Virus record (IMG/VR): IMGVR_UViG_3300045988_124840
Direction: 5' to 3' (one strand)
DNA: 16,108 nucleotides
DNA from: a virus
Taxonomy: Duplodnaviria; Heunggongvirae; Uroviricota; Caudoviricetes
Within the stretch, counting starts at the first letter, position 1. Each line of letters starts with the position of its first letter. Positions 1,149 to 16,013 of the stretch are shown piece after piece. The position numbers and the translations under genes are program-made. The notes beneath the pieces were generated by a model, which saw only the letters and a list, made by a program, of their open reading frames with translations, made no database searches and was not told the origin of the DNA.

Positions 1149-1263
1149 CAGAAAACCCTCCGAGTGGTGTGTTTTTTTGCGACTACTAATCGCTTTTTTC
1201 GTGGTGGCTGAAATTTAGCCACCAATAGTAGGCACTTGTGATGAATATATTCACGATGAATTG

Positions 1264-1563
1264 TTAACCAGTCTTTTGACCGGAGTGGGGCGACGTTGTT
1301 TCGTTTTGCCCAAAGTGTGCGAGAGCGGGCGCAATTTGCCCGGACTCAGGAGCGATCTGATTGGTCATGAACCATAAAGTGTATTTGGTGAATTGTGGGG
1401 TCTGCAGGATGTTCATCATGACATCTGTTGGAGGTGTTGAACGACCACTTTCATAGTAACTCAGCGTGCCATACGGAACCCCTGTTAAATCAGCAAGTTG
1501 TTGTCTGCTCAAATACTCTGATTTTCGCATTAAGACTATCTTCTCGCTTATCGTGTTTGACAT
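1264..1563 (-). CDS. C: Immunity repressor C (99 aa, helix-turn-helix)
   Basis: 99-aa ORF with ATG at 1563, divergent from cox. N-terminal HTH-like segment LSRQQLADLTGVPYGTLSYYE. Size and position match P2 repressor C. Confidence 0.9.
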   Translation of the reverse strand: MSNTISEKIVLMRKSEYLSRQQLADLTGVPYGTLSYYESGRSTPPTDVMMNILQTPQFTKYTLWFMTNQIAPESGQIAPALAHFGQNETTSPHSGQKTG

Positions 1564-1677
1564 GGTGTTTAGATCTCAATAGTATTTAGTTTAGATGTAG
1601 ATTGTTTAGTGCTTGGATGTGGGCACTAAAAGGCATTATAAGACATTAAACGCAATTCATGAGGGCTAGAGGACGAC
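1564..1677. promoter_or_regulatory. Lysogeny/lytic switch region between C and cox (Pe/Pc promoters with repressor operator repeats)
   Basis: Intergenic region between divergent C and cox. TTTAG(A/T) motifs recur at 1568, 1585, 1590 and 1605; TTTAGAT at 1568..1574 and 1590..1596 are 22 bp apart. Purine-rich RBS GAGGGCTAGAGGA precedes the cox ATG. Exact -35/-10 hexamers not assigned. Confidence 0.6.
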
Positions 1678-1953
1678 ATGAGCAAGCAAGTAACACTCAT
1701 GACTGATGCGATTCCTTATCAGGAGTTCGCAAAACTAATAGGAAAATCGACAGGAGCGGTTCGTCGGATGATCGATAAAGGAAAGCTGCCTGTAATTGAT
1801 ATGACCGATCCACAATCAGCTTCAGGTCGTGCAGGTGAATATTGGGTATACCTTCCGGCATGGAATAACGGACTAAAACTGGCTTATGAAAGCCGCCCTA
1901 AAGAGATTCGTGACGGCTGGTTGATGTGGTTAGGTCTCGGTGAACCACGTTAA
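1678..1953 (+). CDS. cox: Cox (91 aa): excision directionality factor and repressor of Pc
   Basis: 91-aa ORF, first gene of the rightward early operon, ATG at 1678 with upstream RBS. Size and position match P2 Cox. Confidence 0.9.
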   Translation: MSKQVTLMTDAIPYQEFAKLIGKSTGAVRRMIDKGKLPVIDMTDPQSASGRAGEYWVYLPAWNNGLKLAYESRPKEIRDGWLMWLGLGEPR

Positions 1954-1963
1954 GGAGAACCGT

Positions 1964-2134
1964 ATGAATGAGCCTCGTTGTATTGCTCAGTTACTGCGTA
2001 ACGAAAGCCCCAGGGCGATTGACTTCACCATCACCCACGGTAAGGGGCGTAAGGGAATCATTATCCGCACCAAAAAACAGAGTCCGTTAAAAAAGGCTCT
2101 GACCTTTCTGAAAAGCCGGAGGGTATGGAAATGA
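1964..2134 (+). CDS. Small early protein (P2 orf78-like, 56 aa)
   Basis: ATG at 1964 is preceded by AAGGAG (1952..1957). The track start at 1940 is GTG inside the cox 3' end. The stop overlaps the B start (ATGA). Confidence 0.7.
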   Translation: MNEPRCIAQLLRNESPRAIDFTITHGKGRKGIIIRTKKQSPLKKALTFLKSRRVWK

Positions 2135-2631
2135 CAGTGATGACGCTCAATCTCGTTGAAAAACAGCCAGCAGCTATGCGCCGGATAATTGGCAAGCATC
2201 TTGCCGTCCCTCGCTGGCAGGATACATGTGATTATTATAATCAGATGATGGAGCGCGAACGGCTAACGGTTTGCTTTCATGCACAGTTAAAACAGCGTCA
2301 CGCAACGATGCGTTTTGAAGAAATGAACGACGTCGAACGTGAACGGCTGGTTTGTGCAATTGATGAATTGCGTGGGGCATTCTCAAAACGCCGTCAGGTC
2401 GGCGCAAGTGAGTATGCATATATTAGTTTTTTAACAGTCAGTCAGCGTCGCACTTTATTTATGCACGCACGACTGACAGAAAAAGAATTCAACCAGCCAT
2501 ACTGGCGAATTAATGAAGAATCATGTTACTGGCGTGATGCTTTATTCCGTGCATTACGTGAATTATTCAGCCTGTTTGAGTATGCACCGACAATTCTGAC
2601 GTCGGTAAAACCAGAGCAATATCTGCATTAA
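2131..2631 (+). CDS. B: Replication protein B (166 aa; helicase-loader-like early protein)
   Basis: ATG at 2131 overlapping the orf78 stop, with GGAGGG RBS upstream. The 166-aa length matches P2 B. The track start at 2125 adds two residues. Confidence 0.85.
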   Translation: MTVMTLNLVEKQPAAMRRIIGKHLAVPRWQDTCDYYNQMMERERLTVCFHAQLKQRHATMRFEEMNDVERERLVCAIDELRGAFSKRRQVGASEYAYISFLTVSQRRTLFMHARLTEKEFNQPYWRINEESCYWRDALFRALRELFSLFEYAPTILTSVKPEQYLH

Positions 2632-2694
2632 GTAATTAATCAGAGTTTTTAACGCACTTAATTGTGCGGGGCTTCTTTTTGCCTGGAGAACGTC

Positions 2695-2919
2695 ATGCAT
2701 ACAGTTTCCGAAAATCAGTGCGGTAAATACGCATTACTGCTGCAACAGGCCAGAACCGAAGCACAGGCCGACGCAGCGACGCGCTTTTCTTCTCATCTTG
2801 ACGCCATGATTCGCCACATCACAAAGGCGGAGTTATCCCGCGTGGAGATAGTCGAGCTGCTCAGTCAGGAGTCGGAAAAATTTCACAATATCGGATTGTC
2901 TCGCGGGGAGGTGCTTTGA
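2695..2919 (+). CDS. Small early protein (P2 orf80-like, 74 aa)
   Basis: ATG at 2695 preceded by GGAGA. The track start at 2662 is TTG. The stop overlaps the next start. Confidence 0.65.
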
Positions 2920-3221
2920 TGTCCTGTTCTCGTTCAGTTGTATTACTGAATAACGCCTTAAAAATCACCGTTATGAAAAATGGCGATTTATCTCTTATTC
3001 AACTTGGTCTTGATAAAGAAAAACGCGAAATAACTGAGTCTGTTATCGCGATTTATCAGAACGAATTAAATCTCCTGTCTGATGTGGTCAATTTACTTGT
3101 TAAACGCGCTGTATTTCACAAGCAAATCTCCTCCGTGGATGAACTGACGAAATTAACGACAGAAATTGCCAGCTATTGCGCTGATGAATTTAAAAAACTT
3201 AACGACAAAAGGAGCTGGTAA
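2919..3221 (+). CDS. Small early protein (P2 orf81-like, 100 aa)
   Basis: ATG at 2919 overlapping the upstream TGA, with GGGGAGG RBS. Translationally coupled chain of small ORFs. Confidence 0.65.
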   Translation: MSCSRSVVLLNNALKITVMKNGDLSLIQLGLDKEKREITESVIAIYQNELNLLSDVVNLLVKRAVFHKQISSVDELTKLTTEIASYCADEFKKLNDKRSW

Positions 3222-3445
3222 TGCCGGACAACGTAGATTTTATTCAGGAACAACAGGCTGAATTACTGGAGCGTCAGATTAACGCGGCAAGGGTAAAACA
3301 TTGCGGTGCTTCTGCGCTGGTTTGCGAAGAGTGTGACGCGCCAATACCTGCTGCCCGTCGTGCGGCTTACCCGTCAGCCACGCGTTGTGTTTCCTGTCAG
3401 TCAGTCTTTGAAGCAAAAAACAAACATTACCGGAGAACGGCATGA
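3221..3445 (+). CDS. DksA/TraR-type C4 zinc-finger protein (P2 orf82-like, 74 aa)
   Basis: Two CxxC pairs (CEEC ... CVSC) separated by about 17 residues, the TraR/DksA zinc-finger pattern. GGAG RBS, TAATG stop/start overlap with orf81. Confidence 0.75.
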   Translation: MPDNVDFIQEQQAELLERQINAARVKHCGASALVCEECDAPIPAARRAAYPSATRCVSCQSVFEAKNKHYRRTA

Positions 3446-3717
3446 GTATTCGTATTGAAATTGGCGAACGTTATGTCGTTACCAGTGACAGCTTTCAGTT
3501 TATTCTCCACGAGAAAAAGAGAGCGGAAAGCGGTAAAAACGCCGGTCAGGAATGGCTGGCGGTGGTTGGTTATTACCCGAAATTAAGCCAGCTCGTTTCC
3601 GGCCTGATGCATCACGATATTCTGACCGGAAGCGCAAAGTCTTTTGCTGATTTAAACGCGCAGGTTGAGCAACTCAGCAAGCGTTGTTCAGAGGCTTTTG
3701 GCTCATATGGCCGTTAA
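3442..3717 (+). CDS. Small early protein (P2 orf83-like, 91 aa)
   Basis: ATG at 3442 overlaps the orf82 stop (ATGA). Its 3' end overlaps the start of A. Confidence 0.65.
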   Translation: MSIRIEIGERYVVTSDSFQFILHEKKRAESGKNAGQEWLAVVGYYPKLSQLVSGLMHHDILTGSAKSFADLNAQVEQLSKRCSEAFGSYGR

Positions 3718-5983
3718 AGCCTCCGGGCGTTTTGTCCCTCCGTCAGCATTTGCCGCAGGCACCGGTAAGACGTTTACCGGTGCTTATGCATGGAACGCGC
3801 CACGCGAGGCTGTCGGGCGCGAAAGACCCCTTACACGTGACGAGATGCGTCAGGTGCAAGGTGTTTTATCCACGATTAATCGCCAGCCTTACTTTTTGCG
3901 CTCGCTGTTTACTTCACGCTATGACTACATCCGGCGCAATAAAAGCCCGGTGCACGGGTTTTATTTCCTCACATCCACTTTTCAGCGTCGTTTATGGCCG
4001 CGCATTGAGCGCGTTAATCAGCGCCATGAAATGAACACCGACGCGTCGTTGCTGTTTCTGGCAGAGCGTGACCACTATGCGCGCCTGCCTGGAATGAATG
4101 ACAAGGAGCTGAAAAAGTTTGCCGCCCGTATCTCATCGCAGCTTTTCATAATGTATGAGGAACTCTGCGATGCCTGGGTGGATGCGCATGGCGAGAAAGA
4201 ATCGCTGTTTACGGATGAGGCGCAGGCTCACCTGTATGGTCATGTTGCTGGCGCTGCACGTGCTTTCAATATTTCCCCGCTCTACTGGAAAAAATACCGT
4301 AAAGGACAGATGACCACGAGGCAGGCATATTCTGCCATTGCCCGCCTGTTTAACGATGAGTGGTGGACTCATCAGCTTAAAGGCCAGCGTATGCGCTGGC
4401 ATGAGGCGTTACTGATTGCTGTCGGGGAGGTCAATAAAGACCGTTCTCCTTATGCCAGTAAACATGCCATTCGTGATGTGCGTGCACGCCGCCAGGCAAA
4501 TCTGGAATTTCTTAAATCGTGTGACCTTGAAAACAGGGAAACCGGCGAGCGCATCGACCTTATCAGTAAGGTGATGGGCAGTATTTCTAATCCTGAAATT
4601 CGCCGGATGGAGCTGATGAACACCATTGCCGGTATTGAGCGTTACGCCGCAGCAGAGGGTGATGTGGGGATGTTTATCACGCTGACCGCGCCGTCAAAGT
4701 ATCACCCGACACGTCAGGTCGGAAAAGGCGAAAGTAAAACCGTCCAGCTAAATCACGGCTGGAACGATGAGGCATTTAATCCAAAGGATGCGCAGCGTTA
4801 TCTCTGCCATATCTGGAGCCTGATGCGCACGGCATTCAAGGATAATGATTTACAGGTCTACGGTTTGCGTGTCGTCGAGCCACACCACGACGGAACGCCG
4901 CACTGGCATATGATGCTTTTTTGTAATCCACGCCAGCGTAACCAGATTATTGAAATCATGCGTCGCTATGCGCTCAAAGAGGATGGCGACGAAAGAGGAG
5001 CCGCGCGAAACCGTTTTCAGGCAAAACACCTTAACCGGGGCGGTGCTGCGGGATATATCGCGAAATACATCTCAAAAAACATCGACGGCTATGCACTGGA
5101 TGGTCAGCTCGATAATGATACCGGTAGGCCGCTGAAAGACACAGCTGCGGCTGTTACCGCATGGGCGTCAACGTGGCGCATTCCGCAATTTAAAACGGTT
5201 GGTCTGCCGACAATGGGGGCTTACCGTGAACTACGCAAATTGCCTCGCGGCGTCAGCATTGCTGATGAGTTTGACGAGCGCGTCGAGGCTGCACGCGCCG
5301 CTGCAGACAGTGGTGATTTTGCGTTGTATATCAGCGCGCAGGGCGGGGCAAATGTCCCGCGCGATTGTCAGACTGTCAGGGTCGCCCGTAGCCCGTCGGA
5401 TGACGTTAACGAGTACGAGGAAGAAGTCGAGAGAGTGGTCGGCATTTACGCGCCGCATCTCGGCGCGCGTCATATTCATATCACCAGAACGACGGACTGG
5501 CGCATTGTTCCGAAAGTGCCGGTCGTTGAGCCTTTGACTTTAAAAAGCGGCATCGCCGCGCCTCGGAGTCCTGTCAATAACTGTGGAAAGCTCACCGGTG
5601 GTGATACTTCGTTACCGGCTCCCACACCTTCTGAGCACGCCGCAGCCGTGCTTAATCTGGTTGATGACGGTGTTATCGAATGGAATGACCCGGAGGTCGT
5701 GAGGGCGCTCAGGGGCGCATTAAAACACGGCCTGAGAACACCAAACCGTCAGCAAAGAAACGGAAGCCCGTTAAAACCGAATGAAATAGCGCCATCGGCC
5801 AGGCTGACCCGGTCGGAGCGTATGCAAATTACCCGTATCCGCGTTGACCTTGCTCAGAACGGTATCAGGCCGCAGCGATGGGAGCTTGAGGCGCTGGCGC
5901 GTGGCGCGACCGTAAATTATTACGGGAAATCTTTCAATTATCAGGTCGCTGATGAGTGGCCTGGATTTTTGTTACCCATTTGA
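3707..5983 (+). CDS. A: Rolling-circle replication initiator/endonuclease A (HUH superfamily)
   Basis: Long ORF with an HUH-type motif (PHWHMMLF) and paired tyrosines (GYIAKYISKN), typical of P2 gpA-type nicking proteins. Start placed at the first ATG (3707, MAVKAS...). The track's 3665 start is TTG; an in-frame TTG at 3698 is also possible. Confidence 0.9.
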   Translation: MAVKASGRFVPPSAFAAGTGKTFTGAYAWNAPREAVGRERPLTRDEMRQVQGVLSTINRQPYFLRSLFTSRYDYIRRNKSPVHGFYFLTSTFQRRLWPRIERVNQRHEMNTDASLLFLAERDHYARLPGMNDKELKKFAARISSQLFIMYEELCDAWVDAHGEKESLFTDEAQAHLYGHVAGAARAFNISPLYWKKYRKGQMTTRQAYSAIARLFNDEWWTHQLKGQRMRWHEALLIAVGEVNKDRSPYASKHAIRDVRARRQANLEFLKSCDLENRETGERIDLISKVMGSISNPEIRRMELMNTIAGIERYAAAEGDVGMFITLTAPSKYHPTRQVGKGESKTVQLNHGWNDEAFNPKDAQRYLCHIWSLMRTAFKDNDLQVYGLRVVEPHHDGTPHWHMMLFCNPRQRNQIIEIMRRYALKEDGDERGAARNRFQAKHLNRGGAAGYIAKYISKNIDGYALDGQLDNDTGRPLKDTAAAVTAWASTWRIPQFKTVGLPTMGAYRELRKLPRGVSIADEFDERVEAARAAADSGDFALYISAQGGANVPRDCQTVRVARSPSDDVNEYEEEVERVVGIYAPHLGARHIHITRTTDWRIVPKVPVVEPLTLKSGIAAPRSPVNNCGKLTGGDTSLPAPTPSEHAAAVLNLVDDGVIEWNDPEVVRALRGALKHGLRTPNRQQRNGSPLKPNEIAPSARLTRSERMQITRIRVDLAQNGIRPQRWELEALARGATVNYYGKSFNYQVADEWPGFLLPI

Positions 5984-6243
5984 GTAAAAATGCAGCGTGA
6001 TTTTATATGCCTTTGAATGGATTATGCGAAGCGCCTCTAAGGCAGATGAGGAGCAATAGCATGCTGAAGTAGAAGGCTAAATTGTATTGAATCGCTAGCA
6101 TGTAATTTAAAGCAGCTATTTGATTCGAGTCATAAAAGAGCATCTATTTCGGCTAATAAAACCATTGCGAGTGACCTTTTGTCGAAGCATAATTCATCTC
6201 GAGCGAAGTCTTGCTAGTCTTTCATCGGAATGATGACAGGCGC

Positions 6244-6273
6244 AAAAAAACCACCCTGGCAGGTGGTTTTTTT
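6244..6273. terminator. Bidirectional intrinsic terminator
   Basis: AAAAAAACCACC / CTGGCA loop / GGTGGTTTTTTT: a perfect hairpin flanked by an A-tract and a T-tract, so it can terminate in either direction. It lies downstream of A (+) and directly downstream of the minus-strand small ORF at 6286..6399. Confidence 0.8.
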
Positions 6274-6285
6274 GTTTGAAGCATA

Positions 6286-6399
6286 CTAAAGAATAATACT
6301 TACATGGATATTACTGACGTTTACTGACAAACCACTTGGACTACCATATGGATAGCCAAAGAGGGCCAGAACGAGAATGCAGTAATAGCACTTCTTCAT
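6286..6399 (-). CDS. Hypothetical small hydrophobic peptide (37 aa, MKKCYYCILVLALFGYPYGSPSGLSVNVSNIHVSIIL)
   Basis: Not in the ORF track (too short). ATG at 6399..6397 is preceded on the minus strand by a near-consensus RBS AGGAGG with a 4-nt spacer. Hydrophobic N-terminal stretch; TAG stop at 6288..6286 followed by the terminator. Hand-translated. Confidence 0.4.
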   Translation of the reverse strand: MKKCYYCILVLALFGYPYGSPSGLSVNVSNIHVSIIL

Positions 6400-6971
6400 A
6401 TCTCCTCCTGTAAGCAGAGGGCAATTTCCGCCGATATATGCGCTTCTAAGGCGGAGTTACTATTTAGCGAAGTCTTGCCCTGAAATAATGCTCTGTTTAA
6501 ACGCAAAGTGATCTGGCATATCACCGAACAGAGAGCCTGAACAACACAACATATAGTATGTCGTTGTTTCTGGTTGCATTTTATGTTGTGTAATCCTGGT
6601 TTTGCATCAAGGATGTTTGAGCTTTTTTTGATATAGCTCAAAGTAAAAAGCAGAGACTACGGATGATAAGGTATTGAAAGCAATGTAAATTTTTTAAAGT
6701 TATTGGCGGCTAAAAAATGCACGGTTTCAATATGGTGGACTTAAATAAGCAATTAAAAAAGTCATAAATATCACTAAAATCATGGTGTTACGTTTTTTTT
6801 GTGGGAGCTGCGGTGACGCTTAAGTTGATTTGTCATTAAATAAGCCGTGCATGCAACAAGTGAATGTTTTTGCATGCGTCGGGGATGCCCGTTCCGGCTG
6901 CTTGCGGTCAGAGCTGGTGCGGATCCATAGTATCTATGCAACTGCATTAAAACCGCCACATGAAGCGGGCG

Positions 6972-6990
6972 GGCGAGGCGGGGAAAGCAC
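6972..6990. other. cos site: 19-nt P2-type cohesive end GGCGAGGCGGGGAAAGCAC
   Basis: Exact match to the P2/P4 cohesive-end sequence as I remember it. It is flanked on the left by a GC-richer segment (about 6800..6971), consistent with the cosR packaging region. Confidence 0.8.
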
Positions 6991-7150
6991 TGCGCGCAAA
7001 ATGTTCTTGAAATATTTGTGACATAAGCTAAGACACAAAATGATTGAAGGGCAGAGCAAATCCTACAGTCCTATGCTATTGTCTCATGTAATGCAGATAA
7101 GTTGAAAATTATCTTAAAATATAAGAGTAAAGACATTAAAAGGATTGGTT

Positions 7151-9412
7151 ATGAATAATAACTCTAAGTTATTAAGCTCTATCTCGGTTGAATCTGATTT
7201 CGAGAACCTTATAAAACTATATGCAAATGAGTTATTTGGTGGTGAAACATATCTGATCGGTGGTCCTTGGGATAATGGAAAGGATTTGGTAATAAAAAAG
7301 GGGAATAGAGAGTTAAAGCAAGCTGTACAAATATCTATTCAAGAGAAAAATATTGAAAGTAAGATTGCTCAAGATATTAAAAAAGTGGCGAAATTGGTTG
7401 ATGATCATTATTACCCGCCTGTATTATATTTTTTTTGGAGTCATTCAATATCTGAGCATTTATTGGATAAGATAAGAACAAATGCTCTTAAGGAAGATTT
7501 GATTAGATTGGAGTTTTATGATGCCAAACGGATCTCTCAAGATATTACAGATAAATACCCAGGGTTATTGAATTACTTAATAAAAGATATACATAAGATA
7601 AGTTCTAATACTGAAGATGCAATTAACTTGCAACAAAGAGCATTTTATGAATATTTATTGTTAAGCAAAGATAGTGCTAATTTAAAAAATGAAATAATAA
7701 AAGCTAGTATTATGTCTAATTTATATGATGGCGGGAAGTCTGCTGATGATATTCTAGAGAATCTAAAAGGTGTTAGTCTTACAAAACGTAGTTTACAGGG
7801 TAGACTGCAAAACCTAATTCATCAAAATAAAATTAGATTGAATGATGGTATATATAGCCTGTCACCAGAGGAAATTAAAAAGCTTGAGAATATAAATCTC
7901 CGTGAAATTGTCAGAAAAGAAGAGTTGTTATCAGTAATAAATAATGAGTTGCCCAGAAATACAAGTAAGAATCTGGCTGTTCAAGTTGTTGATTTAATAA
8001 TAAAGGCTTATGAAGAATCAATAAATGTCCAATTAACAGAAAGTAAATTTGAGCCTCCAAAATTACAGATATTCAAAACTATAGTACATAATTTAAAGGT
8101 GTTGATACGGCAGGAATATGATTTGGATGATGAGTCTTCGGATGCTTTAGCAAAAAAGCTAATGGAGTTGGCTGGTCAAAATGACTATTTATCCGAGCAT
8201 TGCTCTGCTAAATTATGTGTGAATCTTTTAAGTGATCGGAAATTAGAGAAATATATTGAAAATAAAAATTTTTATATCTACTTTGATGCGCCTGTTCTTA
8301 TTCCATATTTGATAACTCTTATGTTTGGAGATTTTGAGCTTTTTGATAAGTCGATTAAAAATATAAATTTACTGAGAGAGTGCATAAATCCCCTCAAAAA
8401 TAAACATCTGAGAGTTTCTAATGAACATTTTGAAGAAACTGCAAGGCACTACTCTGAAGCTGAAAAATTAAGTCAGTTTGTAACTGAAGATTTAATTAGT
8501 CAACTTGGTGAGTCGAAAAATGTATACTTTAATGTTTATATGCGGTGGAAAAACAAACAGCCTAAACGTACAGATTTTTACGATTTTACTTATGCTTTTC
8601 TAGGGTTGGATAAAGATGATATTTATGCGGGGTATAAGCATGACACATTTGCGCAATGCATTCATAATTTACTAGCGTCAGCAAATATTGTTGTAATTGA
8701 TAATAAAGACTCGGTGTCACAAGACTTTGTATTTAAAATAAAGCAAAAACTTAAAAGGGATTTGAATTCTTCACGTCCCGTTCGAGCCATAGAAAATGAT
8801 GTTATATGTGCTGCAACTTTGAGTGATGAAACCCTACATCTTGATTCCAATGGTTACTTCAGTACTCCCATGCTAATAACACTTGATAGATCTCAATATC
8901 TATTGAGAAGCATAGTAAGAAATGAAAGGAGACATGCTGAATGGTTGGTTTATACCCCTCAAAGAGCAATTGAACGTCTTTCCTTGGTGGGTTTAAAAAT
9001 ATCATCGGAATCGTTAAAGGATGGTGTTTTAGCAACCATATCAGAAGAATATTTCTTTAAAGAAAGTTCCAGTAGTTTGATTGATACTTTGGCTATTATC
9101 ATTGGAGATAATCAAGCAAGGCAAGGAGATGTTATTAGGCTTGCATCGCTTTTAAAAAGAAAGGTCAATGAGGAATCTATTGAGAATTCAGAAATTGATA
9201 TTGAACACTATAATAACATTAGTTATGTGCTTCTTTTCATTCATCGTGAATTTAAATCTGAATTTTCAAATATAATAAAAATTTTTGCTGAGGATAGTAG
9301 GCGAGATAAACTGGTTGAAGTTTTGTTATCCACTATTCAAGGAGTTTTTGATGAGAGTAAAAAGGAAATCTTGCGCTCAAATATAGGACGGTTGTTGGCT
9401 GAAATGGGATGA
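7151..9412 (+). CDS. Hypothetical AT-rich cargo protein (753 aa); possible N-terminal Mrr-like PD-(D/E)xK nuclease fold, rest unknown; candidate anti-phage defence protein
   Basis: Single long ORF with codon usage unlike the P2 backbone (AT-rich, Lys/Asn/Ile-rich). ATG at 7151 preceded by AAAGGA with a 6-nt spacer; the track start at 7145 is TTG. N-terminal segment FENLIKLYANELFGGETYLIGGPWDNGKDLVI ... QAVQISIQEK resembles the D-x-G-x-D ... Q-x-K core of Mrr-type restriction-endonuclease domains. No Walker A motif seen. Function is inferred from context only. Confidence 0.75.
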   Translation: MNNNSKLLSSISVESDFENLIKLYANELFGGETYLIGGPWDNGKDLVIKKGNRELKQAVQISIQEKNIESKIAQDIKKVAKLVDDHYYPPVLYFFWSHSISEHLLDKIRTNALKEDLIRLEFYDAKRISQDITDKYPGLLNYLIKDIHKISSNTEDAINLQQRAFYEYLLLSKDSANLKNEIIKASIMSNLYDGGKSADDILENLKGVSLTKRSLQGRLQNLIHQNKIRLNDGIYSLSPEEIKKLENINLREIVRKEELLSVINNELPRNTSKNLAVQVVDLIIKAYEESINVQLTESKFEPPKLQIFKTIVHNLKVLIRQEYDLDDESSDALAKKLMELAGQNDYLSEHCSAKLCVNLLSDRKLEKYIENKNFYIYFDAPVLIPYLITLMFGDFELFDKSIKNINLLRECINPLKNKHLRVSNEHFEETARHYSEAEKLSQFVTEDLISQLGESKNVYFNVYMRWKNKQPKRTDFYDFTYAFLGLDKDDIYAGYKHDTFAQCIHNLLASANIVVIDNKDSVSQDFVFKIKQKLKRDLNSSRPVRAIENDVICAATLSDETLHLDSNGYFSTPMLITLDRSQYLLRSIVRNERRHAEWLVYTPQRAIERLSLVGLKISSESLKDGVLATISEEYFFKESSSSLIDTLAIIIGDNQARQGDVIRLASLLKRKVNEESIENSEIDIEHYNNISYVLLFIHREFKSEFSNIIKIFAEDSRRDKLVEVLLSTIQGVFDESKKEILRSNIGRLLAEMG

Positions 9413-9426
9413 TTTCTTGGTTATTG

Positions 9427-9459
9427 AACGGCACTATGGTCGTTGCTTATAGTGCCGTT
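9427..9459. terminator. Stem-loop between the convergent cargo gene and Q (possible terminator)
   Basis: AACGGCACTA ... TAGTGCCGTT, a 10-bp perfect stem with a 13-nt loop, followed by only TT. A second short hairpin TGCCATT-ATG-AATGGCA lies at 9471..9487. Neither has a strong U-tract. Confidence 0.35.
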
Positions 9460-9503
9460 TTAAGGTGTCGTGCCATTATGAATGGCATATCCGAGTTTAT
9501 ATA

Positions 9504-10538
9504 TTAGGTATCGCAAGTATCTAGTGAGTAGTTTTTAAAGCGGATGACCTCCTGACCGAGCCAGCCGTTTATCTCGCGGATCCTGTCCTGTAACGGGATA
9601 AGCTCATTGCGGACAAAGACCTTTGCCACTTTCTCAATATCGCCCAGTGACCCGACGTTCTCCGGCTTGCCGCCCATCAACTGAAAGGGGATGCGGTGCG
9701 CGTCCAGTAGGTCAGCGGCGCTGGCTTTTTTGATATTAAAAAAATCGTCCTTCGTTGCGACTTCACTGAGCGGGATAATTTTAATGCCGTCGGCTTTCCC
9801 CTGTGGGGCATAGAGAAACAGATTTTTAAAGTTGTTGCGGCCTTTCGACTTCACCATGTTTTCGCGGAGCATTTCGATATCGTTGCGATCCTGCACGGCA
9901 TCAGTGACGTACATGATGTATCCGGCATGTGCGCCGTTTTCGTAATACTTGCGGCGGAACAGCGTGGCCGACTCATTCAGCCAGGCAGAGTTAAGGGCGC
10001 TGAGATATTCCGGCAGGCCGTACAACTCCTGATTAATATCCGGCTCCAGCAGGTGAAACACGGAGCCGGGCGCGAAGGCTGTCGGTTCGTTGAAGGACGG
10101 CACCCACCAGTAAACATCCTCTTCCACCCCACGGCGGGTATATTTTGCCGGTGAGGTTTCCAGTCTGATGACCTTACCGGTGGTGCTGTAACGCTTTTCC
10201 AGAAACGCATTACCGAACACCAGAAAATCCAGCACAAAGCGGCTGAAATCCTGTTGTGAAAGCCACGGATGCGGGATAAATGTCGAGGCCAGAATATTAC
10301 GTTTGACGTAAATCGGTGAGCTGTGATGTACGGCAGCACGCAGGCTTTTTGCCAGACCGGTAAAGCTGACCGGTGGCTCATACCATCTGCCGTTACTGAT
10401 GCACTCGACGTAATCCAGAATGTCACGGCGGTCGAGTACCGGCACCGGCTCACCAAAGGTGAATGCCTCCATTTTCGGGGCGCTGGCGGTCATTGTTTTT
10501 GCCGCAGGTTGCGGTGTTTTCCCTTTTTTCTTGCTCAT
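9504..10538 (-). CDS. Q: Portal protein Q (344 aa)
   Basis: 344-aa ORF with ATG at 10538, lying near cos on the minus strand as in P2. Its start overlaps the stop of the upstream P-derived frame by 1 nt (TGATG). Length matches P2 gpQ. Confidence 0.9.
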   Translation of the reverse strand: MSKKKGKTPQPAAKTMTASAPKMEAFTFGEPVPVLDRRDILDYVECISNGRWYEPPVSFTGLAKSLRAAVHHSSPIYVKRNILASTFIPHPWLSQQDFSRFVLDFLVFGNAFLEKRYSTTGKVIRLETSPAKYTRRGVEEDVYWWVPSFNEPTAFAPGSVFHLLEPDINQELYGLPEYLSALNSAWLNESATLFRRKYYENGAHAGYIMYVTDAVQDRNDIEMLRENMVKSKGRNNFKNLFLYAPQGKADGIKIIPLSEVATKDDFFNIKKASAADLLDAHRIPFQLMGGKPENVGSLGDIEKVAKVFVRNELIPLQDRIREINGWLGQEVIRFKNYSLDTCDT

Positions 10539-10745
10539 CAGTAAAACTCCAGAATGGTGGATGTCAGCGGGGTGCTGATACCGGCGGTGAGTGGCTCATT
10601 TAACAGGGCGTGCATGGTCGCCCAGGCGAGGTCGGCGTGGCTGGCTTCCTCGCTGCGGCTGGCCTCATAGGTGGCGCTGCGTCCGCTGCTGGTCATGGTC
10701 TTGCGGATAGCCATAAACGAGCTGGTGATGTCGGTGGCGCTGACG
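10538..10745 (-). pseudogene. P: Truncated terminase large-subunit gene P (C-terminal ~68 codons only)
   Basis: Minus-strand frame ending ...LTAGISTPLTSTILEFY with its stop overlapping the Q start, the P2 P–Q arrangement. Upstream of about 10745 the same frame runs antisense to FII-like coding sequence, so only the 3' end of P is left. The upper boundary is approximate. Confidence 0.5.
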
Positions 10746-10750
10746 TCGTA

Positions 10751-11071
10751 TTCCCGGATTCGGTTATCTGGGAGCTTTACGCCGCAACCGGTGTGGATGC
10801 CGTCCCGATTCGTTTTGCTGGCTCTTACCAGCGCGACGATACCGGCGAAACGGTGGCCGTCGAGGTGGTCATGCGTGGCCGTCAGAAAGAAATCGACACC
10901 GGCGAGGGTAAACAGGGAGAAGACACCGAGTCGAAAATCTCCGTGGTCTGCACCTATTTCCGGCTGACGATGGACGGTAAGGAGCTGGTCGAAATCGACA
11001 CCATTAACATGATTGAGAAGGTGAACGGCGTCGACCGGCTGGAGCAACACCGCCGCAATATCGGCCTGTGA
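10751..11071 (+). pseudogene. FII: 5'-truncated tail tube gene FII (C-terminal ~105 codons)
   Basis: The C-terminal part of the + ORF (FPDSVIWELYAATGVDAVPIRFAGSYQRDD ... VNGVDRLEQHRRNIGL) is protein-like, matches the P2 FII C-terminus as I remember it, and sits in the expected place just upstream of E. The first ~47 residues of the track ORF look like non-coding read-through. No start codon or RBS for a full-length FII. The 5' boundary is approximate. Confidence 0.6.
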
Positions 11072-11127
11072 TTTTCATCCGGTCAGCCAGGCTGACCGGT
11101 TAACCCCGATTCAGAAGTGAGAAAACC

Positions 11128-11403
11128 ATGAACAAAGAAAATGTGATTACCCTGGACAATCCGGTCAAGCGTGGTGAGCAGGTTATCGAACAGGTCACGC
11201 TGATGAAACCCAATGCCGGGACGCTGCGCGGTGTCAGTCTGGCAGCGGTCGCGAACTCCGAAGTCGATGCACTGATTAAGGTGCTGCCGCGCATGACAGC
11301 ACCGATGCTGACCGAGCAGGAGGTCGCCGCGCTGGAACTGCCTGACCTTGTGGCGCTGGCCGGTAAGGTGGTCGGTTTTTTGTCGCCGAACTCGGTGCAG
11401 TGA
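11128..11403 (+). CDS. E: Tail assembly chaperone E (91 aa)
   Basis: 91-aa ORF directly upstream of the tape-measure gene. Contains the slippery T-run near its 3' end (see E+E'). Confidence 0.88.
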   Translation: MNKENVITLDNPVKRGEQVIEQVTLMKPNAGTLRGVSLAAVANSEVDALIKVLPRMTAPMLTEQEVAALELPDLVALAGKVVGFLSPNSVQ

Positions 11404-11555
11404 CGTTTCCGAAAAATCTGTCGGTCGATGACCTGATGGCGGATGTGGCTGTGATATTTCACTGGCCGCCATCAGAACTGTACCCCATGAGCCTGACCGA
11501 ACTCATCACATGGCGCGAAAAGGCGCTCCGGCGAAGCGGAAACACGAATGAGTAA
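11128..11555 (+). CDS. E+E': E+E' tail chaperone fusion made by programmed -1 ribosomal frameshift
   Basis: Slippery heptamer-like run GGTTTTTTG at 11374..11382 (six T's at 11376..11381). The -1 frame stays open from there to TAA at 11553..11555, overlapping the T start by 8 nt. This parallels the conserved G/GT-type chaperone frameshift upstream of tape-measure genes. Confidence 0.75.
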
Positions 11556-13995
11556 CAATGTAAAATTACAGGTATTGCTCAGGGCTGTTGACCAGGCATC
11601 CCGCCCGTTTAAATCCATCCGCACAGCGAGTAAGTCGCTGTCGGGGGATATCCGGGAAACACAAAAATCACTGCGCGAGCTGAACGGTCACGCATCCCGT
11701 ATTGAGGGATTCCGCAAGACCAGTGCACAGCTCGCCGTGACTGGTCATGCACTTGAAAAGGCACGGCAGGAGGCCGAAGCCCTTGCCACACAGTTTAAAA
11801 ATACCGAACGACCGACCCGTGCTCAGGCGAAAGTGCTGGAATCCGCAAAGCGAGCGGCGGAGGACTTACAGGCGAAATATAACCGCCTGACGGATTCCGT
11901 TAAACGCCAGCAGCGGGAACTGGCCGCTGTGGGAATTAATACCCGCAATCTTGCACATGATGAGCAGGGGCTGAAAAACCGTATCAGTGAAACCACCGCA
12001 CAGCTTAACCGTCAGCGCGACGCACTGGCGCGTGTCAGTGCACAACAGGCAAAACTTAACGCAGTAAAACAGCGTTATCAGGCCGGAAAGGAACTGGCCG
12101 GAAATATGGCCTCAGTGGGCGCTGCCGGTGTGGGGATTGCTGCTGCGGGAACGATGGCCGGTGTTAAGCTGCTGATGCCCGGTTATGAGTTTGCGCAGAA
12201 AAACTCAGAATTGCAGGCTGTGCTCGGTGTGGCAAAAGACTCCGCCGAAATGGCCGCATTACGCAAACAGGCGCGCCAGCTCGGCGACAATACCGCCGCC
12301 TCGGCAGATGATGCAGCCGGTGCGCAGATTATTATTGCGAAAGCCGGTGGGGATGTTGATGCCATTCAGGCGGCAACGCCGGTCACGCTGAACATGGCGC
12401 TGGCGAACCGCCGCACGATGGAAGAAAACGCCGCCCTGCTGGTGGGGATGAAATCCGCCTTTCAGCTTTCAAACGATAAGGTCGCTCATATCGGGGATGT
12501 TCTCTCCATGACGATGAACAAAACCGCCGCCGATTTTGACGGCATGAGCGATGCGCTGACCTATGCCGCACCTGTGGCAAAAAATGCCGGTGTCAGCATT
12601 GAAGAAACCGCCGCAATGGTCGGGGCGCTGCATGATGCAAAAATCACAGGCTCAATGGCGGGGACGGGAAGCCGTGCCGTGTTAAGCCGCCTGCAGGCAC
12701 CGACGGGAAAAGCGTGGGATGCACTGAAAGAGCTTGGTGTGAAAACCTCAGACAGCAAGGGAAACACCCGACCAGTATTTACCATTCTGAAAGAAATGCA
12801 GGCCAGTTTTGAGAAAAACCGGCTCGGTACTGCCCAGCAGGCCGAATACATGAAAACCATTTTCGGGGAGGAGGCCAGCTCAGCCGCCGCTGTGCTGATG
12901 ACTGCCGCGTCAACCGGAAAGCTGGACAAACTGACCGCTGCGTTTAAAGCCTCAGACGGGAAGACCGCCGAGCTGGTAAATATCATGCAGGACAACCTCG
13001 GCGGTGACTTTAAGGAGTTTCAGTCCGCTTATGAGGCGGTGGGGACTGACCTGTTTGACCAGCAGGAAGGCGCGCTGCGTAAGCTCACGCAGACGGCCAC
13101 AAAGTATGTGTTAAAACTTGACGGCTGGATACAGAAAAACAAATCACTGGCGTCAACCATCGGCCTCATTGCCGGTGGCGCACTGGCGCTTACTGGCATC
13201 ATCGGTGCCATTGGCCTTGTAGCCTGGCCGGTTATCACTGGCATCAATGCCATTATCGCGGCAGCAGGCGCAATGGGGGCAATCTTCACGACGGTTAGCA
13301 GTGCTGTTATGACGGCCATCGGGGCGATTAGCTGGCCGGTTGTGGCCGTGGTGGCCGCCATTGTCGCCGGGGCGTTGCTTATCCGTAAATACTGGGAGCC
13401 TGTCAGCGCATTCTTTGGCGGTGTGGTTGAAGGGCTGAAAGCGGCATTTGCGCCGGTGGGGGAACTGTTCACGCCACTGAAGCCGGTGTTTGACTGGCTG
13501 GGTGAAAAGTTACAGGCCGCGTGGCAGTGGTTTAAAAACCTGATTGCCCCGGTCAAAGCCACCCAGGACACCCTGAACCGTTGCCGTGACACGGGCGTCA
13601 TGTTCGGGCAGGCACTGGCTGACGCGCTGATGCTGCCGCTTAATGCGTTCAACAAACTGCGCAGTGGCATTGACTGGGTACTGGAAAAACTCGGTGTTAT
13701 CAACAAAGAGTCAGACACACTTGACCAGACCGCCGCCAGAACTCAAGCCGCCACGTATGGCAGCGGTGGTTATATTCCGGCGACCAGCTCTTATGCAGGC
13801 TATCAGGCTTATCAGCCGGTCACGGCACCGGCTGGCCGCTCTTATGTAGACCAGAGTAAAAACGAATATCACATCAACCTGACGGGTGGTACTGTGCCGG
13901 GGACACAGCTTGACCGCCAGTTACAGGATGCGCTTGAAAAATACGAGCGGGATAAACGTGCGCGCGCCCGTGCCAGCATGATGCATGACGGTTAA
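11548..13995 (+). CDS. T: Tail tape measure protein T (815 aa)
   Basis: 815-aa ORF with a coiled-coil-like N-terminal half and a long Gly/Ala/Ile-rich hydrophobic block (LASTIGLIAGGALALTGIIGAIGLVAWPVITGINAIIAAAGAMGAIF...), typical of tape-measure proteins. Size matches P2 gpT. Confidence 0.92.
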   Translation: MSNNVKLQVLLRAVDQASRPFKSIRTASKSLSGDIRETQKSLRELNGHASRIEGFRKTSAQLAVTGHALEKARQEAEALATQFKNTERPTRAQAKVLESAKRAAEDLQAKYNRLTDSVKRQQRELAAVGINTRNLAHDEQGLKNRISETTAQLNRQRDALARVSAQQAKLNAVKQRYQAGKELAGNMASVGAAGVGIAAAGTMAGVKLLMPGYEFAQKNSELQAVLGVAKDSAEMAALRKQARQLGDNTAASADDAAGAQIIIAKAGGDVDAIQAATPVTLNMALANRRTMEENAALLVGMKSAFQLSNDKVAHIGDVLSMTMNKTAADFDGMSDALTYAAPVAKNAGVSIEETAAMVGALHDAKITGSMAGTGSRAVLSRLQAPTGKAWDALKELGVKTSDSKGNTRPVFTILKEMQASFEKNRLGTAQQAEYMKTIFGEEASSAAAVLMTAASTGKLDKLTAAFKASDGKTAELVNIMQDNLGGDFKEFQSAYEAVGTDLFDQQEGALRKLTQTATKYVLKLDGWIQKNKSLASTIGLIAGGALALTGIIGAIGLVAWPVITGINAIIAAAGAMGAIFTTVSSAVMTAIGAISWPVVAVVAAIVAGALLIRKYWEPVSAFFGGVVEGLKAAFAPVGELFTPLKPVFDWLGEKLQAAWQWFKNLIAPVKATQDTLNRCRDTGVMFGQALADALMLPLNAFNKLRSGIDWVLEKLGVINKESDTLDQTAARTQAATYGSGGYIPATSSYAGYQAYQPVTAPAGRSYVDQSKNEYHINLTGGTVPGTQLDRQLQDALEKYERDKRARARASMMHDG

Positions 13996-14009
13996 GGAGG
14001 TGACGAAAA

Positions 14010-14489
14010 ATGATGCTCGCGTTAGGTATGTTTGTTTTTATGCGCCAGACGCTGCCACACCAGACCATGCAGCGTGAATCAGATTATCGCTGGCCGTCAA
14101 ATTCCCGTATCGGTAAACGGGATGCCTTTCAGTTTCTCGGCGTTGGCGAGGAAAACATCACGCTTGCCGGTGTGCTTTATCCCGAGCTGACCGGCGGAAA
14201 GCTGACGATGACCACGCTCAGGCTGATGGCAGAGGAAGGTCGGGCGTGGCCGTTGCTGGATGGCACCGGCATGATTTACGGCATGTATGTCATCAGCAGG
14301 GTGAGTGAAACAGGGAGTATTTTCTTTGCAGACGGCACACCCCGAAAAATTGATTTTACGCTGTCGCTCACCCGCGTTGATGAATCACTGGCCGCGCTTT
14401 ATGGCGATATCGGTAAACAGGCGGAATCGCTCATCGGTAAGGCTGGCAGTATGGCGACTAAATTCACGGGTATGACGGGGGCGGGATAA
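14010..14489 (+). CDS. U: Tail protein U (159 aa)
   Basis: 159-aa ORF with AAGGAGG RBS at 13994..14000. Position between T and D and size match P2 gpU. Confidence 0.88.
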   Translation: MMLALGMFVFMRQTLPHQTMQRESDYRWPSNSRIGKRDAFQFLGVGEENITLAGVLYPELTGGKLTMTTLRLMAEEGRAWPLLDGTGMIYGMYVISRVSETGSIFFADGTPRKIDFTLSLTRVDESLAALYGDIGKQAESLIGKAGSMATKFTGMTGAG

Positions 14490-15652
14490 TGCTGGATGCG
14501 CTGACATTTGATGCAGGCAGTACGCTGACACCGGATTACATGCTGATGCTCGACAGCAGGGATATTACCGGCAATATCAGCGACCGTCTGATGAGCATGA
14601 CCCTGACGGATAACCGGGGCTTTGAGGCTGACCAGCTTGATATTGAACTGAACGATGCCGACGGGCAGGTCGGGCTGCCGGTTCGTGGCGCTGTCCTGAC
14701 GGTGTATATCGGCTGGAAAGGTTTTGCCCTGGTATGCAAAGGGAAATTTACCGTTGATGAGGTTGAACACCGGGGCGCGCCGGATGTGGTTACCATCCGC
14801 GCCCGGAGTGCAGATTTTCGCGGGACGCTCAATTCCCGCCGGGAAGGCTCATGGCATGACACCACGCTCGGTGCGATTGTTGAGGCGATAGCCTCCCGTA
14901 ACAGGCTGGAAGCCAGTGTCGCGCCGTCACTGGCCGGAATTAAAATCCCGCACATCGACCAGTCGCAGGAGTCTGATGCAAAATTCCTGACCCGCCTTGC
15001 TGAACGCAACGGCGGTGAGGTGTCGGTAAAAATGGGAAAATTGTTGTTTCTCAAAGCGGGGCAGGGGGTGACGGCCAGTGGTAAAAAAATCCCGCAGATT
15101 ACCATCACCCGCAGCGACGGCGACCGTCATCATTTTGCGATTGCTGACCGTGGAGCCTACACCGGCGTAACGGCAAAGTGGTTACACACCAAAGACCCGA
15201 AGCCGCAAAAGCAGAAGGTAAAACTGAAACGCAAAAAGAAAGAGAAACACCTGCGCGCACTGGAGCACCCGAAAGCGAAACCGGTCAGGCAGAAGAAAGC
15301 GCCAAAAGTACCGGAAGCGCGCGAAGGTGAATACATGGCCGGTGAGGCTGACAACGTTTTTGCCCTGACCACGGTATATGCCACGAAAGCACAGGCCATG
15401 CGTGCTGCTCAGGCGAAGTGGGATAAACTGCAACGGGGCGTTGCGGAGTTCTCCATCATCCTGGCTACCGGTCGTGCAGATATTTACACGGAAACACCGG
15501 TCAGAGTGTCAGGCTTTAAGCGCGTCATAGACGAGCAGGACTGGACAATCACTAAGGTGACACATTTTCTGAATAATAGCGGCTTCACGACGTCCTTGGA
15601 GCTTGAGGTCAGGCTTTCTGATGTGGAGTACGAAACAGAAGATGATGAGTGA
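14489..15652 (+). CDS. D: Tail protein D (387 aa; late-gene-control D)
   Basis: 387-aa ORF whose start overlaps the U stop (ATGA-type junction). Size and position match P2 gpD. Contains a Lys-rich low-complexity linker (KPQKQKVKLKRKKKEKH...). Confidence 0.88.
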   Translation: MLDALTFDAGSTLTPDYMLMLDSRDITGNISDRLMSMTLTDNRGFEADQLDIELNDADGQVGLPVRGAVLTVYIGWKGFALVCKGKFTVDEVEHRGAPDVVTIRARSADFRGTLNSRREGSWHDTTLGAIVEAIASRNRLEASVAPSLAGIKIPHIDQSQESDAKFLTRLAERNGGEVSVKMGKLLFLKAGQGVTASGKKIPQITITRSDGDRHHFAIADRGAYTGVTAKWLHTKDPKPQKQKVKLKRKKKEKHLRALEHPKAKPVRQKKAPKVPEAREGEYMAGEADNVFALTTVYATKAQAMRAAQAKWDKLQRGVAEFSIILATGRADIYTETPVRVSGFKRVIDEQDWTITKVTHFLNNSGFTTSLELEVRLSDVEYETEDDE

Positions 15653-15733
15653 TGTTTTGTTTTTATCTGTTTGTTTTATAAGGATAAATTAACTAAAATG
15701 GCACCATTAACAAAACCGGAAGAGGTGCTCGCG

Positions 15734-15952: not shown

Positions 15953-15962
15953 TTACAAACAG

Positions 15963-15989
15963 AAAGCCCCTCAGTCGAGGGGCTTTTTT
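15963..15989 (+). terminator. Intrinsic terminator downstream of ogr
   Basis: AAAGCCCCTC / AGTC loop / GAGGGGCTTT followed by a T-run (GC-rich stem plus U-tract). Confidence 0.8.
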
Positions 15990-15994
15990 GTCGA

Positions 15995-16013
15995 TGTGGT
16001 CAATGTGTGGACG
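15995..16013. promoter_or_regulatory. Tandem TGTGG(T/A)C repeats, putative Int arm-type sites in the ogr-side att arm
   Basis: TGTGGTCA at 15995..16002 and TGTGGACG at 16006..16013, 11-bp period. Same motif family as the repeats at 144..163. Confidence 0.45.

Follow-up and report, generated by a model that had tools for sequence, protein, structure and literature searches.

The window (the whole 16,108-nucleotide [nt] stretch of DNA analyzed here) is 96 to 98% identical to phage P2 outside a single cassette. P2 replication gene A occupies positions 3665 to 5983 on the plus strand (Pfam Phage_GPA, 5.6e-124; 98% identity to P2), and portal gene Q occupies positions 9504 to 10538 on the minus strand (Pfam Phage_portal; 97.8% identity to P2 positions 199 to 1221). 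These two genes are the left and right borders of the gpA-cos-gpQ interval, a known defense hotspot of P2-like phages (Rousset 2022, PMC9122126; PMC13586616). Within it, a 19-mer at positions 6972 to 6990, GGCGAGGCGGGGAAAGCAC, exactly matches the P2 cohesive end (cosL/cosR) of NC_001895. P2 homology ends at position 6997 and restarts at 9516, and the intervening 2.5 kb (positions 6998 to 9515, plus strand), which start 8 bp to the right of cos, form an AT-rich single-gene cargo cassette that replaces P2 positions 27 to 198, including the tQ terminator and the last four Q codons. A variable gene is thereby placed between gpA and gpQ and beside cos, in the variable P2 region where an earlier note on this DNA had located it.

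The cassette holds one open reading frame (ORF), listed as positions 7145 to 9412 on the plus strand from a TTG codon; from the ATG at 7151 (positions 7151 to 9412), it encodes a protein of 753 amino acids that is identical to WP_053286240.1 ("hypothetical protein"). The GC content of the gene is 0.316, compared to 0.507 for the rest of the window on its flanks; across positions 7001 to 9500 it ranges from 0.29 to 0.35, with values of 0.51 to 0.59 in the right-hand phage backbone and 0.43 to 0.57 on the left. A Shine-Dalgarno-like AAGGA (positions 7140 to 7144, plus strand), found by direct reading of the sequence, precedes the ATG with a 6-nt spacer, and a rho-independent terminator-like hairpin with a U tract (positions 9429 to 9461, plus strand) begins 17 nt past the stop codon. 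RNA folding gave this hairpin a ΔG of −18.5 kcal/mol (z −3.5 versus shuffles); it was folded directly, since its loop is too long for the terminator rule of the consensus scan, which misses it. The consensus scan of positions 6000 to 9600 returned fewer promoter sites than shuffled sequence, and therefore no promoter was assigned. The description of an AT-rich gene with its own ribosome-binding site, convergent with Q, held up on each point, and because P2 homology breaks exactly at 6998 to 9515, the ORF is also, as had been claimed, the sole long gene outside the backbone.

With 153 bp upstream and 103 bp downstream of the ORF, the cassette has room for a single gene only; a multigene operon was ruled out, as there is no space for a second gene and no conserved neighbor. 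The gene is horizontally acquired cargo of a decayed P2 prophage, next to its packaging site. It shares the gpA-gpQ hotspot with P2 old and tin, lysogenic-conversion genes that exclude other phages, but the proteins are unrelated and the positions differ, with old and tin on the left of cos and the present cassette on its right, in the gap before Q. The cassette was found in 1 of 5,426 complete Escherichia coli genomes, and tblastn against 50,697 deposited phage genomes gave no match. The WP_053286240.1 gene is full length and intact in the window, in E. coli 1218KP, and in two IMG/VR contigs. The earlier note had raised the question of whether homologues also adjoin P2-like cos and Q: a Rahnella homologue (71% identity) sits in the same slot of an intact P2/186-like prophage, and homologues on contigs L026, L027, and L030 likewise occupy the P2 slot.

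Lying beside cos, at the leftmost end of the DNA that is packaged, the gene might encode a factor that serves the phage (in counter-defense, as a nuclease degrading DNA or RNA of the host or of competitors while P2 grows lytically, or as a regulator) and gives lysogens no protection. The DNA-binding winged helix of the protein would fit such a factor, and some P2 hotspot cargo is indeed anti-defense. Anti-defense genes are found in only 28 of 1,511 P2 elements, however (PMC13586616), and the gene has its own terminator, converges in transcription with the late P/Q operon, is kept in prophages unable to make virions, and has many homologues outside any phage, all of which makes a phage-serving role quite improbable.

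Domain architecture of the 753-amino-acid protein

Neither the whole protein nor any of four segments gave a significant hit in profile scans against Pfam, NCBIfam, PHROGs, and PADLOC, and PADLOC-DB v2 gave no match at an E value of ≤1. The protein is thus covered by no model of these four libraries, two of which, Pfam and PADLOC, the earlier note had named for a check. Sequence-profile searches of the PDB gave a weak winged-helix match alone, and a fold search against BFVD viral structures gave no full-length match, with domain-level likeness to restriction endonuclease and winged-helix proteins.

Three folds were nevertheless observed. The N-terminal head (residues ∼1 to 150; positions 7151 to 7600, plus strand) has an Mrr-type PD-(D/E)xK-like fold with the alpha-beta-beta-beta-alpha-beta core of restriction endonucleases. 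It is followed by a winged helix-turn-helix domain (residues ∼176 to 237; positions 7676 to 7861, plus strand), a helical linker or bundle (residues ∼239 to 361; positions 7865 to 8233, plus strand), a PIN-fold nuclease domain with large helical insertions (residues ∼374 to 640; positions 8270 to 9070, plus strand), and a C-terminal helical domain (residues ∼643 to 752; positions 9077 to 9406, plus strand). The two helical regions belong to no recognizable family and were delimited by AF2 secondary structure, in the C-terminal case together with conservation (D645 is conserved at 95%). The statement that the roughly 600 residues behind the head lack any recognizable motif therefore did not survive, given the winged helix and a PIN domain with conserved D-E-D-D; the statement that the protein has no Walker A did, as no profile scan of the protein detected a P-loop.

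Conserved residues of the head are G38, D41, G43, D45, Q60, K71, D75, and K78. It shares with Mrr_cat and type IV restriction endonucleases both the fold and a D-G-G-x-D … Q motif, and D41, D45, and Q60 are conserved at 92 to 94% in the family. Position 62 is S or T (T in 75%) rather than K, so that the "Q-x-K" reading of the earlier note is ruled out in favor of Q60-x-(S/T)62, while its assignment of the fold stands. Since the canonical lysine of the (D/E/Q)xK motif is missing, the head may not be catalytic; judging from the alignment, K71 and K78, which are conserved at 89 to 92% and lie on the next helix, could substitute for it. The head also differs from known Mrr_cat domains in staying below the Pfam gathering score (PF04471; head alone, E value of 0.11, 13.1 versus 21 bits). 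Mrr_cat reached an E value of <0.05 in 8 of 60 family members (best, 0.0077), an external HHblits result gave the Mrr_cat-type head a probability of 97.1, and heads across the family matched Mrr_cat, LmuA, and the Ago-associated REase profile weakly.

The PIN domain has the alpha/beta/alpha fold, closest to that of VapC toxins of toxin-antitoxin systems, and carries four acidic residues at the sequence level, D379, E429, D550, and D579, that are 99 to 100% conserved among relatives at ∼20% identity. Its invariant residues are D379, E429, N457, D550, D579, and P603, with T577 conserved at 92%. By secondary-structure register, three of the four acidic residues occupy canonical PIN positions (D379 after beta1, E429 on the helix after beta2, and T577-x-D579 after beta4), and the fourth, D550, lies on a helix; the quartet is a candidate for a complete metal-binding set. 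The protein itself had no Pfam PIN hit, and 1 of 60 members matched PIN_12 (E value of 0.0055). As judged from conservation, the constant core of the family is the PIN domain and not the head, the D-E-D-D residues being its most conserved positions.

This pattern bears on whether the protein could be a type IV modification-dependent restriction endonuclease, in which the winged helix would read modified phage DNA and the Mrr-like head would cut it, leaving the PIN domain a structural or oligomerization role only. We regard this as unlikely: conservation peaks in the PIN quartet and not in the head, the head is without the canonical lysine, the domain order is reversed with respect to Mrr, and relatives exchange the head for DUF4062-type or HEPN-like domains, which are not such DNA endonucleases.

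Distribution, head exchange, and genomic neighborhoods

Homologues form 46 clusters at 90% identity and about 500 at 50% identity, nearly all full length, and extend over several phyla, from Proteobacteria to Bacteroidota, Verrucomicrobia, and Clostridia. The flanks are richer in GC than the gene at 33 of 34 loci. Homologues occur in at least three prophage types, beside integrases or resolvases, and in small islands, and no neighbor other than the P2 backbone is conserved across the 34 loci, in agreement with the proposal of a single-gene system. On lambdoid contigs, two homologues are each broken into two ORFs, from which we infer that the gene is sometimes lost. Such apparent disruption, the AT-rich and probably H-NS-silenced DNA, and the dead prophage around the gene might suggest a degenerate ORF with no current function. 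That is exceedingly improbable, given a 753-codon frame still open in 31% GC DNA, where it is not expected to arise by chance, conservation over the full length in ∼500 clusters, even at ∼20% identity, with catalytic-type residues that do not vary, and identical intact copies in four independent contexts.

Some relatives carry a DUF4062-type or HEPN-like domain in place of the N-terminal head. The DUF4062-type heads match the head of the PADLOC candidate PDC-S60 (E values of 1e-47 to 1e-49); the HEPN-like head carries an RN(x3-4)H motif, with a HEPN_Apea match (E value of 0.004) in one member. PADLOC matches in relatives were limited to swapped heads (PDC-S60, Aga_REase, and LmuA), and none fell on the conserved body. 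Outside P2 elements, neighbors of the homologues match KwaB (5e-99), PDC-S51, PDC-S65, SoFic, AbiU, DitA, DolB, SngC, BrxH, DpdF, pAgo, and PsyrT, which are raw matches counted by family. Integrases and IS transposases also lie near the homologues, as do a HEPN_LA2681 protein and a KAP NTPase. Two prophages that decayed independently both retain an intact gene, and in Enterobacter, a homologue stands alone at the baeR-trhP site; survival of the gene after loss of prophage virion genes is consistent with host domestication.

The same retention, in decayed prophages and alone in Enterobacter, would also be expected of a selfish addiction or stabilization module, that is, a fused toxin-antitoxin in which a PIN toxin is joined to an inhibitor in cis and has no anti-phage role; the likeness of the PIN fold to VapC and the constant location on mobile or recently mobile DNA point in the same direction. 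There is, however, no antitoxin gene or conserved neighbor, one stable polypeptide offers no obvious route to killing after loss of the element, the neighbors are defense systems and not plasmid maintenance genes, and exchangeable heads of the Mrr, HEPN, and DUF4062 kinds are what immune effectors typically carry. An addiction module is improbable on this evidence.

A proposed defense function and its relation to known systems

WP_053286240.1 is listed by DefensePredictor as a "predicted novel defense gene" with a mean log-odds of 13.06 (Science 2026, PMC13092281, Table S10), its sole remote similarity there being to a type IV Mrr domain and spanning 18% of the protein. Validation rates in that study climbed with log-odds (r = 0.95) and were 45% overall, so that more than half of the tested predictions gave no phenotype; WP_053286240.1 is absent from its tables of cloned and validated genes (PMC13092281). 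The entry is a supplementary-table row without domain architecture, PIN domain, family survey, or analysis of the genomic slot. The gene was therefore not wholly "undescribed," as had been suggested, since it has been listed as predicted, but no HMM library or paper characterizes the protein, and the combination of an Mrr-like head, a winged helix, and an active-looking PIN domain is absent from current defense catalogues. Points counted for defense were the hotspot position, mobility, the stand-alone gene, defense neighbors, active-site conservation, head swapping, the DefensePredictor score, and retention.

We propose that the ORF is a self-contained, mobile anti-phage defense gene carried as cargo in the cos hotspot of a P2 prophage, with a product of four modules: a swappable effector head (here Mrr-type), a nucleic acid-binding winged helix, a helical scaffold, and an invariant PIN nuclease. 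For this reading together with the mechanism below, we put the probability at roughly 55%; that the protein acts in defense at all is probable, and trigger, substrate, and outcome as described are more tentative. In the lysogen, low constitutive expression would supply a protein that is auto-inhibited, as we propose from the lack of an antitoxin. On infection, a phage cue would be sensed through the winged helix and helical body, freeing the PIN active site to cleave RNA, as VapC toxins and DS-3 do. The Mrr-like head might also be freed and cleave DNA, and phage replication would be stopped directly or by abortive infection. Alternatively, but doubtfully, the winged-helix-PIN body is an NTPase-free immune core of a new kind, whose PIN domain senses or processes a phage-specific nucleic acid structure and thereby licenses the attached toxic head (Mrr-like, HEPN-like, or DUF4062/TIR-like). 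The invariant PIN site would then not be the killing device, and the protein would be a minimal single-chain counterpart of STAND, SMC, or Argonaute cores with the same interchangeable heads.

Mrr-type effector heads of Avs4, Lamassu LmuA, and short-pAgo partners are swappable N-terminal modules like the one seen here, but the 753-amino-acid protein has no STAND, SMC, or Argonaute partner domain and lacks the central P-loop STAND NTPase of STAND/Avs-type proteins; its constant core is winged helix plus PIN. PDC-S60 is related to the heads of members P0131 and P0147 in its N-terminal ∼180 residues (DUF4062-type), whereas its other ∼720 profile positions are unmatched in the family and the present protein has no PDC-S60 match. 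Membership in PDC-S60 is ruled out, since the swapped head alone is common to both and occurs in other family members.

Among PIN proteins, the closest precedent in kind is DS-3 (WP_022645725.1), a validated single-protein VapC-like defense with no antitoxin, presumed to be auto-inhibited until infection, whose catalytic D/E mutants lose defense (PMC13092281). DS-3 is 340 amino acids long, with its PIN domain split between both termini and with neither an Mrr head nor a winged helix. The signature motifs of the 753-amino-acid family are absent from the cloned DefensePredictor sequences, and a comparison of the DS-5 PIN protein with the PIN profile of the family by hhalign gave a probability of 0.6%. 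Identity with the validated systems is ruled out by the missing motifs and, for DS-5, by the 0.6%; DS-3 is set apart by its description. In type II VapBC systems, VapC is paired with an adjacent VapB antitoxin, whereas here there is neither VapB nor any conserved neighbor in 34 loci, and compared to VapC, the PIN domain of ∼265 residues has large helical insertions, lies within a multidomain protein, and reaches none of the Pfam PIN thresholds. Menshen NsnC likewise joins a PIN-fold domain to shuffled nuclease domains in one defense protein, but its PIN-like domain is N-terminal and has lost D-E-D-D, and NsnC acts together with NsnA and NsnB as part of a three-gene system (PMC12065111). The 753-amino-acid protein has an invariant D-E-D-D and an N-terminal nuclease head, and it is encoded by a stand-alone gene that has no conserved neighbor such as nsnA or nsnB.

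The 753-amino-acid protein is thus a credible candidate for a single-protein nuclease defense. Its gene shows that cargo of this probable defense type may be placed on the right-hand side of cos in P2-type phages, where the packaged genome ends. If it does protect against phage, it would define a widespread single-gene immune family of ∼500 clusters at 50% identity and would be a second antitoxin-less PIN defense beside DS-3. The family has a constant body with alternative heads and therefore offers a natural experiment on which module senses and which kills.

The AT-rich cassette and its P2-type prophage

The window and P2 (NC_001895) share 96 to 98% identity over four stretches: the attP core with int, C, cox, B, and A (window 29-5967; P2 24356-30294), cos with short flanks (6943-6997; around cos in P2), Q with the final 216 nt of P (9516-10754; P2 199-1437), and part of FII followed by E, T, U, D, ogr, and the attP core (10751-16080; P2 19053-24382). 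Pfam families for integrase, gpA, portal, a terminase C-terminal fragment, tape measure, gpU, gpD, and Ogr are present. The P2 identity from att core (29-55) to att core (16054-16080), together with these Pfam matches, indicates that the whole prophage of ∼16.05 kb lies inside the window. The prophage is defective, given a 17.6-kb deletion that joins P2 position 1437 (in the terminase gene P) to 19053 (in FII) with a 4-nt overlap (junction at 10751-10754); head, lysis, baseplate, tail-fiber, and sheath genes are gone with it. A 170-aa ORF at 10538-11050 was rejected as a gene, since it is a fusion of the P fragment.

Two segments are unlike P2 (5968-6942 and 6998-9515). The second, the cassette, lies beside the P2 cohesive-end 19-mer (6972-6990) and contains an open frame on the plus strand (7145-9412; ORF listing of the window), with a probable ATG start at 7151, 6 bases past an AAGGA sequence (7140-7144), and a product of 753 residues. 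The GC content is 0.29 to 0.35 over 7001-9500 and 0.51 to 0.59 in the rightward phage backbone; the value for the ORF is 0.316 versus 0.507 for the remainder of the window, which bears out the earlier note's description of an AT-rich 753-aa ORF beside cos. The cassette takes the place of just 172 bp of P2 sequence, among which are the tQ terminator and the final four Q codons. Because 153 bp and 103 bp flank the ORF on its 5′ and 3′ sides, respectively, the cassette has only this one gene. The apparent terminator of the ORF is a hairpin at 9429-9457 with UUUU behind it (ΔG of −18.5 kcal/mol, z of −3.5). The right boundary of the cassette is located 12 nt within the portal gene Q (9504-9515), the final four codons of which differ from P2, and tQ is lost; the cargo exchange has therefore replaced the 3′ terminus of a gene that is essential.

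In P2-like phages, the gpA-gpQ interval by cos is a documented defense hotspot (PMC9122126; PMC13586616). The other non-P2 segment (∼975 bp, 5968-6942) is found between gene A and cos in place of P2 orf91-tin-old. Matches to it occur in 2,129 of 5,426 E. coli genomes, and no annotation covers it in the top matches listed. No convincing gene was found in it, only an 81-aa TTG frame (6396-6641) without a Pfam match. A strong GC-rich hairpin with A and T runs on either side was observed at ∼6243-6272; the segment could be a spacer, a regulatory RNA, or packaging related.

An invariant PIN core with exchangeable heads

Conservation was determined in alignments of 60 to 125 relatives, all full length and with identities around a median of ∼20%. 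D379, E429, N457, D550, D579, and P603 are invariant in these relatives, and T577 is conserved at 92%. According to the secondary-structure register, D379 lies past beta1, E429 on the helix past beta2, and T577-x-D579 past beta4, as in a canonical PIN domain; D550 is located on a helix. The earlier note recognized no motif in the ∼600 residues behind the head, and this has to be revised, as the invariant D379, E429, D550, and D579 are found there, D379, E429, and D579 with PIN-like placement. Residues 453 to 461 of the PIN domain (GESKNVYFN; window 8507-8533) form a G-x-S-x-N-V-(F/Y)-x-N loop that is a family signature, and its N457 is 100% invariant, though the loop lies outside the canonical PIN active site.

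In the N-terminal head, G38, D41, G43, D45, Q60, and K71 are conserved at 92 to 94% and D75 and K78 at 89%. The Q-x-K core to which the earlier note saw a weak resemblance here is not the conserved pattern, since position 62 is serine or threonine, not lysine. When 60 members were scanned singly against Pfam, Mrr_cat was the commonest family (8 members), followed by DUF4062, two winged-helix families (2 each), and PIN_12 (1).

In all, 192 members were retrieved, and 151 of these have the head found in the window protein. A DUF4062-type head takes its place in three others, of which one is N-terminally truncated; this head scores slightly below the Pfam cutoff when the whole profile is considered and aligns with positions 1 to ∼180 of PDC-S60, a PADLOC candidate (E values of 1e-47 to 1e-49); the remainder of this 906-position profile is unmatched by these members. 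A helical head of ∼215 residues with the motif RN(x3-4)H(N)SP is found in members P0165, P0175, P0177, P0180, P0182, P0187, and P0191. It has no Pfam family above threshold (one member matches HEPN_Apea with an E value of 0.004) and may represent a HEPN-like effector domain not described before. Since the heads differ among members, what stays constant is the body, made up of the winged helix, helical region, PIN, and C-terminal helices, and the head at the N terminus is an exchangeable module, the same pattern as for the effector heads of other immune proteins. The main rival explanation, a type IV restriction enzyme working via its head, is consistent with the Mrr-like head but at odds with the family-wide conservation pattern and with the head swaps.

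Occurrence and genomic company

Among 5,426 complete E. coli genomes, one (strain 1218KP) contains the cassette, with 100% identity, and its gene product is annotated as "hypothetical protein" WP_053286240.1. The host element (NZ_CM173878.1, 17833-27910, yegR-trhP site) is a second P2 remnant, decayed independently of and differently from the window prophage, with a truncated gene A, a terminase fragment joined to baseplate genes, and an IS3 beside int; the defense candidate is intact in both wrecked prophages. The identical gene is also found, together with a full-length terminase, on two IMG/VR contigs. None of 50,697 deposited phage genomes searched by tblastn encodes a relative. Protein searches yielded 46 clusters at 90% identity in Gammaproteobacteria, and an exhaustive profile search ∼500 clusters at 50% identity (191 below an E value of 1e-30), mostly of 750 to 780 aa. 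Genome scans showed that the family reaches Betaproteobacteria, Bacteroidota, Verrucomicrobia, Cloacimonadota, and Clostridia at 22 to 27% identity.

An all-against-all comparison of neighboring ORFs revealed no conserved partner gene; the sole recurring neighbors are P2 backbone genes (six loci). In 33 of 34 loci, the GC content of the gene is below that of the flanks. Homologues sit in the P2-like slot in a Rahnella P2/186-like prophage, with the same gpA-X-portal arrangement as the window, and in the P2-like viral contig L030, and homologues also occur at the edge of a 186-like prophage (Pantoea), 3′ of tail-fiber genes (other phages), adjoining integrases or resolvases (Vibrio, Pseudomonas, and Klebsiella), on a small island (Aeromonas), and alone between baeR and trhP (Enterobacter). 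Strong PADLOC matches to many different defense families were found, along with integrases and transposases, among 122 neighbor ORFs of 23 non-P2 loci.

Several loci showed further features. In L030, the homologue and a gene for a 567-aa KAP-family P-loop NTPase (12010-13710) are both located within the gpA-portal hotspot. The Rahnella bonaserana prophage with a 71%-identical homologue has an AAA_15/AAA_21 ATPase gene (20882-22262) right after tail gene S, which is a second cargo gene, in the tail-region hotspot. The Enterobacter cloacae complex homologue (L036, 8001-10271; 54% identity) has no surrounding phage genes, and its baeR-trhP site is the chromosomal neighborhood where the 1218KP remnant integrated; it may be all that is left of a prophage that has otherwise eroded away. 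On two lambdoid-type viral contigs (L033, 4054-6356; L034, 9965-12267; 41 to 43% identity), the homologue adjoins a HEPN_LA2681 gene and replication genes and is broken into two ORFs, and it is therefore probably a pseudogene.

Relation to known systems and proposed function

A literature search found WP_053286240.1 in the main text of no paper. The protein is present in Table S10 ("uncharacterized_clusters") of the DefensePredictor machine-learning screen (Science 2026) as "Predicted novel defense gene," with a mean log-odds of 13.06 (range, 11.6 to 14.2); its best remote defense match there is a type IV Mrr domain (18% of the protein, probability 97.1). Of the 94 units assayed in the study, 45% conferred phage protection, and the rate of validation rose with the log-odds (r = 0.95). 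The window protein is absent from the cloned units and the family motifs from the cloned sequences. The validated PIN systems of the study are different proteins: DS-3 is 340 aa long, whereas in DS-5 a PIN_12 protein is encoded alongside a partner gene; a profile comparison with the DS-5 PIN protein found nothing. Menshen NsnC likewise combines a PIN-like domain and shuffled nucleases in one protein; however, NsnC belongs to a three-gene system and has a catalytically dead PIN.

The analysis establishes the folds, residues, modularity, mobility, and hotspot location; the defense role and its trigger, substrate, and outcome are inferred. The interpretation with the best support is that the protein would act as an auto-inhibited, stand-alone defense nuclease, in which the winged helix and the helical body would serve as the infection sensor and the invariant PIN site as the RNA-cleaving center, possibly with DNA cleavage by the Mrr-like head in addition. 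That the gene is an addiction module, benefits the phage, or is non-functional is less likely. Because every one of its domains is known from immunity and the screen had already flagged the protein, it is not categorically new, and the earlier note's "undescribed" applies to the architecture, to the invariant PIN core with its interchangeable heads, to the breadth of the family, and to the slot right of cos.
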